A stretch of DNA of 13,334 nt from Candidatus Eiseniibacteriota bacterium. GTDB lineage: Bacteria; ARS69. The position numbers and the translations under genes are program-made. The notes beneath the pieces are model-generated. The model worked only from the letters and a program-made list of their open reading frames with translations, ran no database searches and had not been told where the DNA came from. The stretch spans positions 1-13,334 of the forward strand of contig JBQTGV010000162.1 of the NCBI GenBank assembly GCA_052390515.1, in the 5' to 3' direction. Positions 3,939-10,531 of this stretch are shown here, piece after piece; position 1 is the stretch's first letter, and each line of letters opens with the position of its first letter.

Positions 3939-4421
3939 ATGGGCGTCTACGGTTGGGCCAAGCTGAAGATCGGCGGCAATGTGTCGAAGCGCGCGCTGCG
4001 AGAAGCGCTTGCGATCCACGAGATCGATGTGGACGAGGCCCTCAAGTCGGGTGACTACGAAGGACAGGGGCTCGAGGCATACCTGGACGAGGACCACCTG
4101 GTCGTCGAGCACGACCAGGCGAGCTATGCCCAGTTCACGGACCTGGAGGCCGCGCTCGTCACGGCAGGAATTGCGTTCGATCGGCTGAGTGACGCGGTGG
4201 CCGAGTACGGCGAGAGCGTGCGCTTCTTTCGCCCGGGCCTGGCCAAGCCGTATGACGCGGCCTCGGAGGGCTACGAGCCGATGGTCCCGGTGGGTGAGGT
4301 GCGCCGGCGGCTCGCGGATGGTCTCGATGCACTCCAGAGGTGGCTCGACCAGGAGTATCCGGCGATCCCAGAGCTCGAGAGGTTGGAGATCGTCGAGGAC
4401 GAGCCCGCCACCACCAACTGA
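3939..4421 (+). CDS. Hypothetical acidic protein (160 aa)
   Basis: SD GAGGAG upstream of ATG 3939. Protein-like composition (MGVYGWAKLKIGG...ASYAQFTDLEAALVTAGIAFDRLSD). The upstream part of the 3366-4421 ORF is low-complexity and probably not translated. Confidence 0.75.
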   Translation: MGVYGWAKLKIGGNVSKRALREALAIHEIDVDEALKSGDYEGQGLEAYLDEDHLVVEHDQASYAQFTDLEAALVTAGIAFDRLSDAVAEYGESVRFFRPGLAKPYDAASEGYEPMVPVGEVRRRLADGLDALQRWLDQEYPAIPELERLEIVEDEPATTN

Positions 4422-4442
4422 AGAGCGGCAGGGGCGGCCGGT

Positions 4443-4694
4443 CTAGTTGCGCCGGAGATTGTAGTCGAGCCAGTCAACCGTGGCGAGTTGACGGCTGGAA
4501 AGCTCCTGCCCTCGCTTGAGCGCCGGGTCGTCTGGCAGCGCGTACGCGGCGTCCAGTGTCGCAGAGCCCCACCGCCAGTGCCGAGGGTAGGGCCACGGGA
4601 TCGGCCCACCCATCAGCCGGAACATCACGGCAGTGGCCAGCCAGCCGAGCACCACGACCCCGAGCAGATCGAGGATGACCAGAACGGTCTCCAT
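4443..4694 (-). CDS. Small single-TM membrane protein (83 aa, METVLVILDLLGVVVLGWLATAVMF...); host gene of the intron, original ATG at 6764-6762
   Basis: N-terminal hydrophobic helix. Joining ATG (6764-6762) to GAG ACC (4691 downward) gives the same protein as starting at the intron-terminal ATG (4694-4692). Confidence 0.7.
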   Translation of the reverse strand: METVLVILDLLGVVVLGWLATAVMFRLMGGPIPWPYPRHWRWGSATLDAAYALPDDPALKRGQELSSRQLATVDWLDYNLRRN

Positions 4695-4787
4695 TGGTAG
4701 ATCCTTACCCCCCGACCGCCTTGCAGCGGTACTGGAAGTCAAGACCCCCTTTCAAACCGTGCGTGCGGATTTCCCGCACACGGCTTA
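4692..4787 (-). ncRNA. Group II intron catalytic domain V and domain VI
   Basis: AGC catalytic triad at 4785-4783 and GAAA-containing loop. DVI stem GGGGGTCTT / AAGGATCT[A]CC with inner hairpin ACCGC-TGCAAG-GCGGT. Confidence 0.92.
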
Positions 4788-4811
4788 CCGGTGGTCTCTC
4801 GGGTCGCAGCA

Positions 4812-6176
4812 TTACGCCGTCGCCAGGAAGAAGGGCCGCTCCGGGTACTGCACCGTGCCCCGCAAGCGGTGGAGCCCCAGGTTCCAGAAGTACTCGCGCG
4901 TCCACTTGGCCGCCTCGCCCGCCTTCAGATTGCGGCCCTTGCGCTCCGCGCGCAGGTGCCGCAACCGTCGCCAGACATAGCCGTCGATCTGGTTGAACTT
5001 CTTCGCGGCGTTGCCCGTGCGGAAGTAGTTGCCCCAGCCGCGCAGCACTGGGTTCACGTCGGCGATCACCGCCCGGATGTCCTCGTGACAGCGCCGCCTC
5101 AGTGTCAACTCCTTCACGCGCGCCCTCACCCGCTTCAGCGCACCTCGCGAGGGCCAGCGGTGCAGGTAGTACAGGCGCTTCCGCTGGCGCGCCCACAGCA
5201 CCCCGCTCATGCGCTTCTGCAAGTGATGGCCGAGGAAGTCGAACCCCTCCTTACCGTCGTAGAGCTCGACTCGCCTCGTCTTGTCCGGGTGTAGCTCCAG
5301 ACCGAGCCGCCTCAGAATCTCCCGGATGCGCTGCTCGGCCTTCTCGCACTCGCCCTTCGTCCGACACATCACGACGAAGTCATCGCAGTACCGCACCAGC
5401 GTCCCAAGCGGAGCGCTGTGGCGGCTCCACAACACGTCGAGTACGTGCAGGTAGATGTTGGACAGCAGCGGGGAAATCACCCCGCCCTGTGGCGTCCCCG
5501 CCATGCTCCGCGTGACCGCGCCGTCTTCCATCACGCCTGCTTCGAGCCACTGCCGCACCAGCTTCAGCACCCGCCGGTCCGAAACCCGTCGCGCCACCAG
5601 CTTCAACATCTTGGCGTGATCGATACTGCCGAAGTAGTCGCGAATGTCGGCGTCCAGCACGTGGTGGTGCCCTTTCGCGCCGAGCTTCCTCAGCGTTTCC
5701 AGAGCCCCGAGCGCACCGCGCTTCGGCCGGAATCCCCATGAGCACGGCAGGAAGTCCGCCTCGAAGATCGGCTCCAGCACCAGCTTCGCCGCCATCTGCG
5801 CCACCCGGTCCCGCACCGTCGGAATGCCCAGCGGCCGCTTTCCTCCGTTCCCCTTGGGAATGTACCGACGCAGGACCACCCCCGGCCGGTACTGCTGCTC
5901 CCGCAGCGCGGCGCCCAATTCCTCCAGCATCCGCTCGACGCCGTACTGCTCGACCGCGGCGATCGTCTGCCCATCCACGCCCGCCGCGCCCTGGTTTGCC
6001 CGCACCCGCTTCCACGCTTCCTGGAGGACGTCACTCCGCCAGAGATGGTCGTACAGCGCGTGAAAGCGCCTCCCCGGTGCCCGCTTGGCTGCCGCCCACA
6101 GTCGTCGTTGCAGTTGTCGCACTTTGTCCCGCGGCTTCTCGCCGCGGGGGTCGTTAGGTCCGGTCGCGCCGGCCAT
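4812..6176 (-). CDS. ltrA: Group II intron reverse transcriptase/maturase (~454 aa), no endonuclease domain
   Basis: KVRQLQRRLW..AK, GAAGVDG, RPLGIPTVRDRVAQ, GFRP, DADIRDYFGSIDH, GTPQGGVISPLLSNIYL, RYCDDFVV, GFDFLG, domain X NPVLRGWGNYFR. Start at 6176 inferred from where RT-like sequence begins; the frame is open up to 6764. Confidence 0.95.
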   Translation of the reverse strand: MAGATGPNDPRGEKPRDKVRQLQRRLWAAAKRAPGRRFHALYDHLWRSDVLQEAWKRVRANQGAAGVDGQTIAAVEQYGVERMLEELGAALREQQYRPGVVLRRYIPKGNGGKRPLGIPTVRDRVAQMAAKLVLEPIFEADFLPCSWGFRPKRGALGALETLRKLGAKGHHHVLDADIRDYFGSIDHAKMLKLVARRVSDRRVLKLVRQWLEAGVMEDGAVTRSMAGTPQGGVISPLLSNIYLHVLDVLWSRHSAPLGTLVRYCDDFVVMCRTKGECEKAEQRIREILRRLGLELHPDKTRRVELYDGKEGFDFLGHHLQKRMSGVLWARQRKRLYYLHRWPSRGALKRVRARVKELTLRRRCHEDIRAVIADVNPVLRGWGNYFRTGNAAKKFNQIDGYVWRRLRHLRAERKGRNLKAGEAAKWTREYFWNLGLHRLRGTVQYPERPFFLATA

Positions 6177-6770
6177 TCCCTCGCGCTTACCCGCTCCGAC
6201 GACTCGACCACCCCAGGGGCCCTTCCCTCCCGCCGCGTTCTGCCTCACGGCGTTCGTTCCCGAGGCTCGCGCCCCGGTCTGCGGTACCTCGGCCCCCTCG
6301 GACTCCCGCTGCACCGCGGCCGACTTCACCTTCGGTTTATACGGCTCGCGTCGCCCTGACGGGGGCCGTGCAGACGGGTCTCCCGTGTTCCGCGCTCCTC
6401 CCTGCACGCGTGCTGCGCCCTGTACCCCGCCGGAATTCGCCGCGCGTTCCGGAGCTGGCGCGACGAACATCGCCTTCGCCGTGATATGAGCGGCTCGGCT
6501 CCCGGATTGTTCCTCTGTCGAGGCTGCAGGCTTCACGTGATGTTGCGGCCCACGTGCTCGCTCCCCGCTGTACAGCTCACGCTGCGTCACGGGCTTTTGA
6601 CACCCCGCTCGTCCGTCGAGGTCTCCCTCGCTCAGATGGGGTCTGCTACCCGGCGTTCCGGCACTTACCGGGGCGGGACTTGCACCCGCTGGAGAGGCGC
6701 AGCGAGCAACGGTCGTCTCGCTCGTGCTGCCAGTGAGATCGTCCGTCGCGTCACGGCGCACCATACCTGC

Positions 6771-6776
6771 AGGTTA
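6771..6776 (-). promoter_or_regulatory. Candidate -10 element TAACCT, 6 nt upstream of the host ATG (leaderless-type promoter)
   Basis: Minus strand reads TAACCT-GCAGGT-ATG|GTGCG. No well-spaced SD. Confidence 0.4.
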
Positions 6777-6829
6777 GTCGACCTGCCAAGTCCCTGACCG
6801 GCCCCGTCCACTGAGCAACCCGCGAGGGG

Positions 6830-6847
6830 CCGACCCGCCAATCTGGC
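6830..6847. repeat. 18-bp direct repeat CCGACCCGCCAATCTGGC, copy 2
   Basis: Identical to 920-937. Ends 21 nt before the ATG of the Fis-type HTH gene. Confidence 0.7.
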
Positions 6848-6868
6848 TCGTCCCTCGGAGGCCTCGCC

Positions 6869-7183
6869 ATGCACCGACACAACCTCTATCACTCACTCCT
6901 CGCCGCCTTTCAGGTCGAGGTCATCAAGCGGGCGTTGGCCGCCGCCGGCGGCAACCGCACGCACGCCGCGCGCCTGCTGGGGCTCCAGCGCACCTACCTC
7001 CTCAGGCTGATGCGCGACCGCGGCATCGACGTCCCGCCCGCGCGCGGCAAAGGCCGAAGCACGCTGATTGCTGGAACGACGCCTCCCGAGTTCCACATCG
7101 AGATCAGGGGCTGGGAGCCCCTGGCGCCCCCGAACGGCGACAATCCACATCCGGCAATCGCGACCGACGCCGCTTCGCTCTGA
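6869..7183 (+). CDS. Stand-alone Fis/NtrC-type helix-turn-helix protein
   Basis: IKRALAAAGGNRTHAARLLGLQRTYLLRLMRDRGI is an HTH_8 signature. SD GGAGG upstream. Confidence 0.82.
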   Translation: MHRHNLYHSLLAAFQVEVIKRALAAAGGNRTHAARLLGLQRTYLLRLMRDRGIDVPPARGKGRSTLIAGTTPPEFHIEIRGWEPLAPPNGDNPHPAIATDAASL

Positions 7184-7232
7184 TTTCCCCAACGCAAGAG
7201 GCGATGATCCGCTGACCTTCCGCCCGGGTGGG

Positions 7233-8891
7233 TTAGCGAATCAACGCCTTCTGGCCGAGGAGTCTCGCGATCTCGTCCCGGAGCAGGTATTTCTGGATCT
7301 TCCCGCTCGGAGTCATGGAGAACGCGTCGCGGATCTCGAGACGCTCGGGGAGCTTCCAGGACGCAATGCGCTTGTCCTTGAGAAACGCGATCATCTCCTC
7401 GAAGGTCAGCGGCTCTCCGGGCCGGCAGATCACGAAGGCACAGACGCGCTCCACGAGCACGGGGTCCGGCATGGCGACGCAAGCCACCGTCGCGACCTTG
7501 GGATGGGTGAACAGCAGCTCTTCGATCTCGCGGGCGCTGATGTTGGCGCCACCCCGGATGATCATGTCCTTCTTGCGACCGACGACGCTCAGGTAGTCGT
7601 CTGGGTCCAGCGTGCACAGGTCGCCGGTGCTGTACCAGCGGTCAGCGGTGCAGACCTCGCGAGTGCGGACGGGATCCTTGTAGTACCCGGCGAACAGCGC
7701 CGGTGTTCTCACCTGCAGTTCTCCTTCCTCGCCTGGCTTCCTCGGCGCGCCGGAGTCGGGATCGACCAGGCGTGCCTCGACATCGGGAAGGACCTTGCCG
7801 TCCGTGCCGTACCGCCGGTCGAGCGGATCGGCAGCGGTGATGGCGCTGTTGACGAGAGCCTCGGAGGAGCCGTAGAGGGCGGAGACGAGAAAGCCGTGCT
7901 CGGCCTCGGCGCGCCTGATGAGCTCGCGCGGGATGGGCGCCCCACCGCAGGCGAAGACCCGGAGGCTCGCGAGGGCGTCGCGCGTGGCGTTTCTCGCGTG
8001 CACCAGACCGTAGAGGAACGGCGTCGCCGAGAGCGTGAACGTGCAGCCTTCCCGGGCGATCAGCTCGACGGCGGCTTCGGGATTCCAGTGCTCCTGCCAG
8101 ACGGTGGTCATGCCGCACATCACGGGCAAGCGGGCCCCGATGAGCAGGGCCGTCGTGTGCCCGATGGGCGAGGCCATGAAGATGACGTCGTCGGCGCTCA
8201 GGCCGTAGGTCTCCTGCACCTGGCGGGCACCCCGGTCGATCGTGTTGTGGGTGTGCATCACGCCTTTCGGATTCGCCTCGGTCCCGGAGGTGAACATGAG
8301 CGTCGCCACGCGATTCGGATCTGGTCGGCGGGCGGCGAGATCCGCCGCGGAGGATTGCTCTTCCCACGGCGTGGCGAGGAGGTCCTCGAACGAGCGCATC
8401 CCGTTCGGCACCGACTCGCCGACCACCAGCACGTGGCGGAGGTTGGGAAGCGCCGGCCAGAGCTCGGCGAGCATCGCGGTGTACGAGAAGCCACGGAAGG
8501 TGTCCGGGATCAGCATCACCGCCGTGCCGGCGTACTCCAGGATGTAGCGCACTTCGCGCTCGCGATACACCGCGCCGATCGAGTTCGTCACCGCGCCGAT
8601 CTTCGTCGCCGCGCAGTGCATGATGAGCCACTCGGCCCAGTTGGGAAGCTGGATAGAGATCACGTCTCCGGAGGTCACGCCGAGGTGCAGGAGCCCCCCG
8701 GCGATACGGCGGGCCAGGCGGTCGAGCTCGGCGTAGGTCAGGCGCCAGCGGCGGTCGACGATGGCGAGCTTGTCGCCGCGCTCACGGGCCTGCTGCTGCA
8801 GATAGTCGTCCAGCGTCCGGTTGGCCCACGCGCCGTCCTGCACGTAGCGCTGGGTCGTCTCGGCGTCGTGGTAGATGTCGCGGATGGCCAT
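7233..8891 (-). CDS. AMP-binding acyl-CoA synthetase (cyclohexanecarboxylate-CoA ligase / FadK-like)
   Basis: LMFTSGTEANPKG, YGSSE, YSTGDL, GRKKDMIIRGG, PSGKIQK adenylate-forming motifs; 552 aa. Confidence 0.92.
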   Translation of the reverse strand: MAIRDIYHDAETTQRYVQDGAWANRTLDDYLQQQARERGDKLAIVDRRWRLTYAELDRLARRIAGGLLHLGVTSGDVISIQLPNWAEWLIMHCAATKIGAVTNSIGAVYREREVRYILEYAGTAVMLIPDTFRGFSYTAMLAELWPALPNLRHVLVVGESVPNGMRSFEDLLATPWEEQSSAADLAARRPDPNRVATLMFTSGTEANPKGVMHTHNTIDRGARQVQETYGLSADDVIFMASPIGHTTALLIGARLPVMCGMTTVWQEHWNPEAAVELIAREGCTFTLSATPFLYGLVHARNATRDALASLRVFACGGAPIPRELIRRAEAEHGFLVSALYGSSEALVNSAITAADPLDRRYGTDGKVLPDVEARLVDPDSGAPRKPGEEGELQVRTPALFAGYYKDPVRTREVCTADRWYSTGDLCTLDPDDYLSVVGRKKDMIIRGGANISAREIEELLFTHPKVATVACVAMPDPVLVERVCAFVICRPGEPLTFEEMIAFLKDKRIASWKLPERLEIRDAFSMTPSGKIQKYLLRDEIARLLGQKALIR

Positions 8892-8926: not shown

Positions 8927-10531
8927 ATGGCAGCCTCCCATGACGTCATCGTGATCGGGGCCGGTATGGCCGGCATGTACCAGCTCCACCGGCTGCAGGG
9001 GCTGGGCCTGCGCGCGCGGGTGTTCGAGGCCGGGCACGGCGTCGGGGGCACCTGGTACTGGAACCGTTACCCCGGGGCCCGGTTCGATTCCGAGTCGTGG
9101 ACCTACGGCTACTCCTTCTCGGACGAGATCCTGCGCGAGTGGGAATGGAGCGAGCACTTCGCGGCCCAGCCGGAGACGCTGCGCTACTGCAACTTCGTGG
9201 CGGACAAGCTCGACCTCCGACGGGACATCGAGTTCGGCTGCCGGATCACGGCGGCGGTCTACGACGAGGCCACCAGGCAATGGGAGACCACGGGCGAGGA
9301 CGGCCGAAGGGCGCGCGCGCCGTTCCTGATCACGGCGATCGGGCCGCTGTCGGCGCCGACCATGCCGGCAATCCCGGGCGTGGAGACCTTCCGCGGGGAG
9401 GCGTACCACACCGGCCGCTGGCCCCACGAGCTAGTCAGCTTCGTGGGCAAGCGCGTCGCCGTCATTGGCACCGGGGCCACGGCCGTGCAGGCGATCCCGG
9501 AGATCGCCAAGACGGTCGGCCAGCTCACCGTGTTCCAGCGCACGCCGAACTGGTGCGCGCCGCTGCACAACACTCCGATCGACGCGGTCACCCAGGCGCG
9601 CATCGAGGCCACGTACCCGGAGATCTTCGCGCGCTGCCGGCAGTCGTTCGGCTGCTTCATCCACGACGCGGATCCGCGCAAGGCGCTGGAGGTGAGCGCC
9701 GAGGAGCGCGAGGCATTCTTCGAGAAGCTCTACGGCGAGCCGGGCTTCGGCATCTGGATGGGCAACTTCCGCGACGTGCTGGTGGACCCCGCGGCCAACG
9801 CCACGATCACCGAGTTCATGCGCCGGAAGATCCGGGCGCGCGTGAAGGATCCAGCCGTGGCCGAGAAGCTGATCCCGACCAATCACGGCTTCGGCACCCG
9901 GAGGGTGCCGCTCGAGAGCGGCTACTACGAGGTCTACAACCAGCCGAACGTCAAGCTCGTCGATCTGCGGGAGACGCCGATCGAGCGGATCACGCCGCGC
10001 GGCGTGAAGACGAGCGATGCCGAGTACCCGGTCGACATGATCGTCTACGCCACCGGCTTCGACGCCATCACGGGGGCGTTCGACTGCATCGACATCCGAG
10101 GCCGCGGTGGCCGTCGACTGCGGGACAAGTGGGCCGACGGCCCTCGGACGTACCTGGGGCTGCAGATCGAAGGCTTCCCCAACCTGTTCACGTTGGTCGG
10201 ACCTCACAACGCGGCCACCTTCTGCAACATACCGCGCTGCATCGAGCAGAACGTCGACTGGGTGACCGCGCTTCTCGCCCACATGCGCAAGCAGGGCCAC
10301 ACCTGGGTGGAGCCGACGACGGAGGCGGAGCGCGAGTGGACGCAGCACGTGCACGACACCGGCCGGCGCATGCTCTTCACCCAGGTCGACTCGTGGATGA
10401 TGGGCATCAACTCCAACGTGCCCGGCAAGCAGACGCGCCGGTTCATCGTCTACGCCGGCGGTGCGCCGCGGTACCGCGAGAAGTGCGACGAGGTCGCTGC
10501 CGGCGGCTACATCGGCTTCGCCTTCCGGTAG
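8927..10531 (+). CDS. Type I Baeyer-Villiger monooxygenase (cyclohexanone monooxygenase-like)
   Basis: GAGMAG, GGTWYWNRYPG, BVMO fingerprint FRGEAYHTGRWP (FxGxxxHxxxWP), second Rossmann motif GTGATA, ATGFDA; 534 aa. Confidence 0.95.
   Translation: MAASHDVIVIGAGMAGMYQLHRLQGLGLRARVFEAGHGVGGTWYWNRYPGARFDSESWTYGYSFSDEILREWEWSEHFAAQPETLRYCNFVADKLDLRRDIEFGCRITAAVYDEATRQWETTGEDGRRARAPFLITAIGPLSAPTMPAIPGVETFRGEAYHTGRWPHELVSFVGKRVAVIGTGATAVQAIPEIAKTVGQLTVFQRTPNWCAPLHNTPIDAVTQARIEATYPEIFARCRQSFGCFIHDADPRKALEVSAEEREAFFEKLYGEPGFGIWMGNFRDVLVDPAANATITEFMRRKIRARVKDPAVAEKLIPTNHGFGTRRVPLESGYYEVYNQPNVKLVDLRETPIERITPRGVKTSDAEYPVDMIVYATGFDAITGAFDCIDIRGRGGRRLRDKWADGPRTYLGLQIEGFPNLFTLVGPHNAATFCNIPRCIEQNVDWVTALLAHMRKQGHTWVEPTTEAEREWTQHVHDTGRRMLFTQVDSWMMGINSNVPGKQTRRFIVYAGGAPRYREKCDEVAAGGYIGFAFR

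Follow-up and report, generated by a model that had tools for sequence, protein, structure and literature searches.

A clade of group II introns that ends in AUG and is found behind the start codons of leaderless-type genes

Introduction

Why does a group II intron stand directly behind a start codon, and why does it end in a start codon itself? The question is raised by a stretch of 13,334 nucleotides (nt) from a Candidatus Eiseniibacteriota bacterium (contig JBQTGV010000162.1; hereafter the window, with positions counted from its first letter), whose minus strand carries a complete group II intron of 2,070 nt that begins with GUGCG and ends with CCAAUG instead of the usual AY (A followed by a pyrimidine). 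From a comparison with related introns of many phyla we consider it likely that this is an intact, probably mobile intron without endonuclease domain, and that the clade to which it belongs homes directly behind the start codon of promoter-proximal genes of the leaderless type.

Results

An intact intron with a variant 3' end

The element combines a domain V with the catalytic AGC triad, a domain VI with bulged branch A, and, in domain IV, an open reading frame (ORF) for a reverse transcriptase and maturase. Its domain V/VI region matches the Rfam model RF00029 at 44.2 bits; the match to RF02003 begins 70 nt into the intron, with the core from intron nt 71, and domains I-III span 585 nt. The intron ORF matches RVT_1 (E 5.4e-32), GIIM (E 1.8e-16) and no other Pfam family, and its product ends about 45 amino acids (aa) past the GIIM match, without an endonuclease domain. 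The 5' terminus has the expected GUGCG, and AUG takes the place of AY at the 3' terminus. This end is a variant and no reason to exclude the element from the group II introns, because the base at the gamma position, a C, compensates for it. The features are listed below with their basis in brackets; exon-binding and intron-binding sites are abbreviated EBS and IBS, and Shine-Dalgarno as SD.

4692-6761, minus strand: complete group II intron, GUGCG...CCAAUG, 2,070 nt (Rfam RF02003 and RF00029; ends from 75 related 3' and 64 related 5' ends)
6771-6776, minus strand: TAACCT, -10-like hexamer (TANNNT), 6 nt 5' of the host start codon (sequence read)
6762-6765, minus strand: IBS1 (UAUG), made up of the host ATG (6764-6762) and position -4, the last bases of the 5' exon (pairing, covariation)
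6538-6691, minus strand: domain I core motif, Rfam group-II-D1D4-4 (75.4 bits, E 2.2e-15)
6485-6488, minus strand: EBS1 (CAUA) inside the loop CUCAUAUCA (pairing statistics over related sites)
6422, minus strand: EBS3, the C in GGGGUA-C-AGGG, partner of G4691, the first base of exon 2 (mutual information 1.45 bits)
6298-6300, minus strand: J2/3, CGA; gamma = C6300, proposed partner of the terminal G4692 (alignment of relatives)
4812-6176, minus strand: reverse transcriptase/maturase, 454 aa from the ATG at 6176, YCDD, no endonuclease domain (translation, Pfam)
4812-6764, minus strand: open frame of 650 codons that starts at the host ATG, crosses domains I-III and enters the reverse transcriptase (ORF reading)
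4754-4786, minus strand: domain V (Rfam, consensus fold)
4696-4749, minus strand: domain VI, bulged branch A at 4698 (consensus fold of 53 sequences)
4702-4706, minus strand: AAGGA, SD-like, 7 nt before the terminal AUG, within the 3' strand of domain VI (sequence read)
4692-4694, minus strand: terminal AUG of the intron, in phase with exon 2 (75 related ends)
4443-4691, minus strand: exon 2, codons 2-83 and stop of a small hydrophobic ORF (METVLVILDLLGVVVLGWL...), no known family (ORF list, Pfam)

A scan for related reverse transcriptases, with one genome per species, yielded 80 loci (given below as L numbers) at 50-81% identity, for 75 of which we obtained the 3' end, for 64 the 5' end and for 63 at least 30 nt of 5' flank. 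The 75 related 3' ends read CCAATG (64), CCTATG (9) or CCAGTG (2); the last three bases are thus NUG in all of them and AUG in 73, and the flanks diverge right after the terminal ATG, even among near-identical copies inside one genome. At the 5' end, 51 of 64 loci start with GTGCG, the others with TCGCG (5, or 6 with L057 re-read), TTGCG (5), GTGTG (2) and GTGCC (1). In the window the 5' junction reads ...GCAGGTATG/GTGCG on the minus strand (a slash marks the junction); the host ATG occupies 6764-6762, and the intron starts at 6761. The preliminary description of this DNA had placed the junction there, and its other coordinates are likewise correct. Several relatives' genomes hold multiple near-identical copies at different sites, which would support retromobility of the clade indirectly.

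Alternative registers are possible since ATG stands at both ends, and all of them yield the same ligated exons. We chose the register ATG/GUGCG...AAUG/N because of the EBS3 covariation, the EBS1 pairing, the exchange at gamma and the distance from branch to end. The EBS3-IBS3 interaction of group II introns involves the first base of the 3' exon. Position +1, the base after the terminal ATG, shares 1.45 bits of mutual information with the domain I column N in GGGGUA-N-GGGG, and the two form Watson-Crick pairs in 86% of 63 sites, with A:U, U:A, G:C and C:G all seen; since EBS3 covaries with the base after the AUG, the AUG itself is intron sequence. Eight Bryobacterales sites, all with C or U at +1, fit as well if the adjacent G is taken as EBS3, an assignment that an alignment gap makes uncertain.

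Junction J2/3 is CGA (context GUC-CGA-GGGG) in 61 of 63 aligned rows, the remaining two being misaligned there, whereas the outgroups L107 and L113 of the same Rfam class carry GGA. The L107 family, at 45% identity, ends with ...CUCCAC, hence AC, across six different flanks, and the single-copy L113 with ...CUAC by our reading of its domain VI. With GGA and a terminal C in the outgroups and CGA and a terminal G in the AUG-ending clade, the gamma-gamma' pair would be G:C in the former and C:G in the latter, a compensatory swap. A consensus fold of 53 distinct domain V-VI ends, with compensatory changes at 11 of 20 predicted pairs, places GG:CC below an unpaired, invariant A in domain VI; this A is followed by CC and AAUG, i.e., by 6 nt to the end, and the outgroup branch A, again by our reading, is also followed by 6 nt (A-CUCCAC). 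The proposals made from the window alone, that the intron ends in ATG rather than AY and that a gamma C in J2/3 compensates for the terminal G, hold up across the clade: flank divergence, EBS3 covariation and branch distance agree on the first, and the nearly uniform CGA as opposed to GGA in the outgroups on the second. The combination expected there for homologous introns, namely gamma = C, a terminal ATG, an EBS1 with CAU and sites at start codons, does co-occur across the related loci.

Two kinds of deviating ends were seen. L086 and L091 end in GUG, and both stand behind GUG start codons; in L091, as in L057, which is also located behind GUG, EBS1 has changed to CAC. Sub-lineages starting with U comprise L044, L057, L078, L082, L083 and L091 (UCGCG) and L058, L059, L061, L073 and L079 (UUGCG); all of them retain the EBS3 pairing, and one is present four times in a single genome.

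Minimal pairing with the exons

The domain I loop CUCAUAUCA (6490-6482) is closed by the stem GCCG (6494-6491)/CGGC (6481-6478) and contains CAUAUC at 6488-6483. Loop positions 1-4 pair with the exon in 64, 62, 63 and 62 of 64 distinct sites, positions 5-7 in 33, 29 and 15 and without covariation. EBS1 position 4 and exon position -4 share 0.64 bits and are paired in 97%: C at position -4 occurs with G in the loop, G with U, and the U that is unique to the window with A. A pairing of six out of six bases, GGUAUG with CAUAUC, had been described for the window, with the AUG as part of IBS1; it is present and does include the AUG, but only four of the pairs are specific by the count over 64 sites, and the last two are probably due to chance. 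A scan of all domain I columns against positions -5 to -8 revealed no EBS2-IBS2 pairing. Judged by these statistics, exon recognition by base pairing is minimal, with four pairs (EBS1 CAUN : N'AUG) and one more between EBS3 and the first base of codon 2.

The target: start codons of leaderless-type genes

The intron follows a start codon at 60 of 63 sites (ATG 56, GTG 3, or 4 with L057 re-read, and TTG 1), so that the insertion after initiation codons suggested for the window proves to be a habit of its relatives; exceptions include GAG in L021, whose 5' end has changed too, and ACG in L076. Position -4 is C in 50 of 63 sites. Upstream, 58 of 63 sites (59 with L057 re-read) have a TANNNT box that ends 5-8 nt ahead of the start codon, with spacers of 6 nt (32 sites), 7 nt (19) and 8 nt (7), and four of the five misses are near-matches. 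In comparison, the same motif occurs at the same spacing in only 46 of 5033 (0.9%) other ATGs preceded by C, G or T in these flanks. The window site reads TAACCT-GCAGGT-ATG, and that of the cultured carrier Embleya sp. NBC_00896 (58.7% reverse transcriptase identity; copy on NZ_CP108777.1, about 1,251,800-1,253,800) TACGGT-GCGTCC-ATG/GTGCG...CTACCAATG/ACC.

TANNNT before a start codon is a signature of leaderless genes. According to a study of Mycobacterium tuberculosis, 73% of primary transcription starts have a TANNNT motif centred 7-12 bp upstream, and a -35 consensus is absent (PMC3898074). By analogy with this spacing, a box 6-8 nt before the A of ATG predicts leaderless transcripts that would start at the start codon. 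The box as a part of the element was considered and rejected: the surrounding sequence wholly differs between copies within one genome. Its variable spacing is to be expected of a promoter rather than of a fixed pairing register.

The frame of the terminal ATG has a median open length of 167 codons, compared with 15 and 68 for the other two, and is the longest in 40 of 63 sites. In a Pfam scan of 20 of the 36 terminal-ATG ORFs of at least 140 codons, which were chosen by us and not at random, 17 had Pfam families in this frame. In seven of the tested ORFs the profile was matched from its position 1-7, starting 5-27 residues past the ATG, for instance Aldedh (residues 12-472 on profile positions 2-460), AIRC (5-151 on 2-146), SpoU (5-154 on 2-142) and adh_short (8-193 on 1-190). 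The ORFs behind the introns therewith appear to be real genes that start at that ATG.

Intron-less relatives of one host gene provide a view of the site before insertion. The gene interrupted at L051 encodes a phosphoglucomutase-like protein, for which a metagenome scan returned 15 intron-less relatives, 10 of them with N-terminus. All 10 show a -10-like hexamer, N6-7, ATG and codon 2 of a protein M-x-x-A-x-W-L-Q-S-Y-S-G-V-R, with a strict TANNNT in eight and CATAAT in the two closest. L126 and L132 (92% identity) read ...CATAAT-N6-ATG-CCAGGCGCCAAGTGG, with a single ATG, behind which the first 15 nt of the L051 exon 2 are matched without a difference. Since intron-less orthologues also carry the box, the box belongs to the host, and this gene family would be of leaderless type even without the intron. 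The predicted form of the empty site was hence found for the L051 host gene and not for the window's own site. A similar search through purE for L023 gave no empty site, the 25 relatives being too distant, with differing N-termini and leaders.

An open frame from the host start codon into the reverse transcriptase

Over its first 181 codons, the frame set by the host start codon is free of stops in 25 of 48 distinct introns, compared with 0 of 48 in each of the other frames; mean stop counts are 1.6 in the host frame and 4.8 and 4.65 in the others, while the outgroup L107 has 5, 4 and 3. Among 44 distinct introns with mapped reverse transcriptase start, 22, including the one in the window, have the host frame fused to the reverse transcriptase; L072, one of these, has a later stop within it. 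The fused ORFs measure 594 to 680 codons, a variation in length which shows that insertions and deletions have not disrupted the frame. In another five introns the host frame stops at most 40 nt from the reverse transcriptase start, as seen in the ATGA overlap of L076 and the TAG-gc-ATG of L058 and L059, and in one it runs on in a frame other than that of the reverse transcriptase. Roughly half of the lineages thus keep the frame stop-free through the ribozyme domains I-III, an observation that is new here. In our reading, ribosomes that start at the host AUG would serve the intron's own gene.

A probable replacement start codon at the intron tail

The AAGGA that had been noted 7 nt before the terminal ATG is present at 4706-4702, and an SD-like 4-mer lies 5-14 nt upstream of the terminal AUG in 37 of 52 distinct 3' ends. 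Compensatory changes in domain VI have left the motif intact (AAGGAUCU, CAGGGUCU, CAAGGUCU). We rather favour a translational role of the terminal AUG, because the last three bases are always a start codon, which is not so in the outgroups. The GUG ends of L086 and L091 behind GUG codons and the eleven introns that start with U would leave room for a role at the RNA level.

Discussion

How both genes might be expressed

If transcription begins at the A of the host ATG, the 5' exon of the RNA would consist of AUG alone, which would explain the loss of pairing beyond the AUG. Ribosomes on this 5'-terminal AUG would read into the reverse transcriptase and make a fusion protein, from 650 codons in the window, while for some lineages termination at the beginning of the reverse transcriptase gene would be expected instead, suggesting coupled re-initiation. 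The displaced host ORF might be served in two ways: Splicing would restore pppAUG followed by the ORF, and on unspliced RNA the intron's AUG, together with AAGGA in the sub-clade of the window, could act as start codon. As a whole, this amounts to a "start-codon swap", in which the clade finds AUG-starting mRNAs, perhaps via melted or exposed promoter-proximal DNA, translates its reverse transcriptase from the host AUG and gives the host a replacement AUG, in many lineages with an SD motif; one leaderless promoter would then express both genes, spliced or not, with a 5' exon of 3 nt. We put this complete scheme forward tentatively, as a possibility that falls somewhat short of being probable.

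Several observations weigh against it or against the homing behind start codons. Eleven of 64 introns start with U and not G, which the scheme leaves without explanation. The SD-like motif is absent from 15 of 52 3' ends, among them whole sub-clades (Solirubrobacterales, Bryobacterales, the Embleya copies), and in the other ends its bases take part in the pairing of domain VI. Sixteen of 44 introns have a stop in the host frame that lies over 40 nt ahead of the reverse transcriptase start. The L069 copy falls within an ABC ATPase domain (profile position 30), at an internal Met codon, and at 7 of 63 sites the frame after the ATG is open for less than 60 codons. Because of the kinship among the introns, the counts overstate their independence. 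As for the window, its exon 2 ORF has no known family, its empty allele was not found with the exon 2 protein in 11 genomes of the same family, and the exact 22-mer of its 5' flank was not found in metagenome contigs. Four sequencing runs, one of RNA, gave short contig fragments of related introns and neither a spliced nor an empty form; joints in these data had short sides and were not located at intron ends. One of the runs, which contains 0.80 of the sampled words, probably represents the source sample.

Homing or later selection?

The association with -10 boxes could also have arisen after insertion, if the intron enters at any NATG/N and copies behind leaderless starts, being the only ones to be transcribed and translated, are those that persist and multiply. 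Base pairing spans 5 nt and none was seen to the box region, the L069 copy occupies an internal Met codon, and the open frame from the host AUG would provide a plausible selective reason. Against this, a 100-fold enrichment of the box (58 of 63 sites vs 0.9%) needs a quick loss of nearly all other insertions; dead copies elsewhere should then be common, yet just one sampled site lies inside a gene, and the decayed copies L021, with its changed 5' end, and L076, with its ACG codon, have the box as well. We regard such a later selection as somewhat unlikely, though as the strongest competitor of targeted homing.

A feature of the ribozyme alone?

The terminal AUG may likewise be nothing but a ribozyme feature, a shifted 3' splice site with gamma = C, in which case the host gene would be expressed after splicing only. 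The ends without SD-like motif are in line with this, and the GUG ends behind GUG hint that the terminal triplet tracks the triplet of the 5' exon. That the terminal AUG is in phase with the host ORF is a necessary outcome of the insertion point and no independent evidence for translation. Such an origin would not account for a start codon as the last three bases in 75 of 75 ends, or for the survival of the SD-like motif through compensatory changes in domain VI, and outgroups with, by our reading, the same 6-nt branch distance end in CAC or UAC, so that AUG is not required. A pure ribozyme feature is therefore unlikely in our view, and a replacement start codon remains the reading that we prefer.

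The status of the copy in the window

A third alternative concerns the window only, whose intron could be an immobile relic in an intergenic spacer, with an 83-codon ORF behind it that is not a gene. It is the only copy in its 95%-complete genome, and no near-identical DNA was found in 60 relatives, just fragments of 31-44 nt, mostly of domain V; the exon 2 ORF has neither a family nor a homologue in the 11 related genomes. On the other hand, the reverse transcriptase ORF is uninterrupted and encodes YCDD, and none of domain V, branch A, EBS1, EBS3 and gamma is missing. The intron moreover fits its own site, as the A in EBS1 matches the unusual U at -4, and this site carries the box at a 6-nt spacer. 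The relic is thus an improbable explanation compared with an intact, probably mobile intron.

Least of all do we credit boundaries one base further upstream (AU/G-GUGCG...CCAAU/G), which would give a canonical AU end with an extra 5' G, restore a 5' GU in the UCGCG and UUGCG sub-lineages and leave ligated exons identical, so that empty sites cannot discriminate: such a shift is very improbable, for EBS3 covaries not with the G of the ATG but with the base after it (U:A in L057 and the Solirubrobacterales copies, which start with U), this G has the C of EBS1 as its partner at all 64 sites, gamma = C suits a terminal G, and the branch A would be followed by 5 nt instead of the 6 in the outgroups.

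Comparison with known introns

The closest canonical relatives are the G064 family (L107-L112, 45% reverse transcriptase identity) and copies on Streptomyces plasmids (L117, about 50%). They share with the clade of the window the Rfam domain I family, a reverse transcriptase without endonuclease domain and a similar size, and differ in their ends (GUGCG...AC) and in J2/3, which is GGA in L107 and L113, those that were checked. The G064 family targets a repeated GATGTCCGC...GGGT motif and not start codons.

In the yeast mitochondrial introns aI1 and aI2, the reverse transcriptase is in frame with the upstream exon; these belong to organelles, follow a long coding 5' exon and end canonically in AY. 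The clade of the window resembles them in that the frame of its intron protein is open from the host start codon through the intron RNA, and is unlike them in that its 5' exon would comprise no more than the start codon and about half of the lineages show the fusion.

Initiation and termination codons are also the sites of a IIB1 lineage (Avi.groEL, EcKTE56.groEL), which is reported in housekeeping genes and has a CL1 reverse transcriptase with endonuclease domain and a domain I insertion of 300-700 nt (Gomes et al. 2025, PMC12584367, summarising Michel et al. 2007). Going by that summary, the two groups are alike in their habitual sites in or beside start or stop codons, and the groEL introns rebuild the codon that they split (UAA to UAG). 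The clade of the window differs by the absence of an endonuclease domain and of a domain I insertion (its 5' part has 585 nt), by its affiliation with RF02003, by the AUG end and by the -10 boxes.

Class C (IIC) introns are described behind transcription terminators and attC sites (PMC12584367, PMC1702495). As characterised in these sources, they too have no endonuclease domain, a very short EBS-IBS pairing and a specificity that derives from genomic context. Their context is a DNA hairpin after gene ends, whereas the introns studied here lie at gene starts, with a -10 box at variable spacing, and have an ordinary bulged-A domain VI and a domain I of another kind. Instead of a hairpin with T run, their 5' flanks carry the -10 box and the start codon, and no terminator-like site was found within positions 4300-7300 of the window.

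A 3' splice site that departs from the usual is also known from bacterial class B introns with a 3' extension such as B.a.I2, where it is reported 50-70 nt past domain VI (PMC4028801, PMC4424553). Unlike in the intron described there, the distance from branch to end appears normal in the clade of the window, and the terminal bases alone differ.

We found no published description of group II introns that end in AUG or target leaderless genes, and this widespread clade is apparently undescribed; earlier mentions might yet be present in Michel et al. 2007 or in the supplementary tables of PMC3552965. Start codons and initiation are mentioned neither in a 2015 review (PMC4424553) nor in PMC3552965, and homing or insertion sites are also unmentioned in the latter.

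Implications

Homing at a promoter-proximal start codon would add a third kind of context-guided homing, beside that at terminator or attC hairpins and that of the IIB1 lineage at start and stop codons. The supposedly fixed AY end of group II introns would be replaceable when gamma changes along with it, and intron-finding pipelines will misplace the boundaries of this clade. In consequence, the annotated starts of dozens of host genes would be intron RNA, with the true start codon 2 kb upstream. A precursor with a 5' exon of only 3 nt, if true, would test the minimum exon need of a group II ribozyme, and the open frame from the host AUG to the reverse transcriptase suggests that intron proteins fused to an exon have a bacterial counterpart, tied to leaderless translation. 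With a pairing of 5 nt and a sensing of context, the clade could furthermore be of interest as a promoter-seeking insertion tool. The cultured carrier Embleya sp. NBC_00896 makes these readings testable.

Genomic surroundings and further observations

Upstream of the intron in the window lies a divergent gene:

6869-7183, plus strand: divergent neighbour gene with a Fis-type HTH_8 domain (Pfam HTH_8, E 5.7e-09)

The intron therefore sits inside a divergent promoter region of 104 nt. The best sigma-70-like match of a promoter scan of the window, TTGGCA-18-TATGGT (6760-6789, minus strand), was not used, as its hexamer TATGGT, 18 nt behind TTGGCA, is made by the insertion itself; it would start transcripts a few bases into the intron. 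The further genes are ordinary, an AMP-binding (acyl-CoA synthetase-like) enzyme at 7233-8891 on the minus strand and a flavin monooxygenase-like protein at 8927-10531 on the plus strand. A search with RF02003 of 14 named control genomes gave no match.

Among the canonical outgroups, L107 (G064:C5:1800-10800) consists of three head-to-tail copies of a GUGCG...AC intron with a period of 1984 nt, and the tandem junction CCAC/GTGCG is unlike the GATGTCCGC...GGGT target of the single copies elsewhere. Some introns carry extra DNA: seven of them (L029, L079 and L089-L093) are 3389-4289 nt long, with 1.4-2.3 kb of additional sequence inside, and in L029 a second reverse transcriptase (42% identity) adjoins the first. 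L028, L039 and L053 have an insert within domain V that starts with GTGCAGCC...; in L039 (4388-5212) it comprises about 825 nt, too short for a reverse transcriptase gene, and it looks like a small nested intron without ORF, i.e., a twintron.

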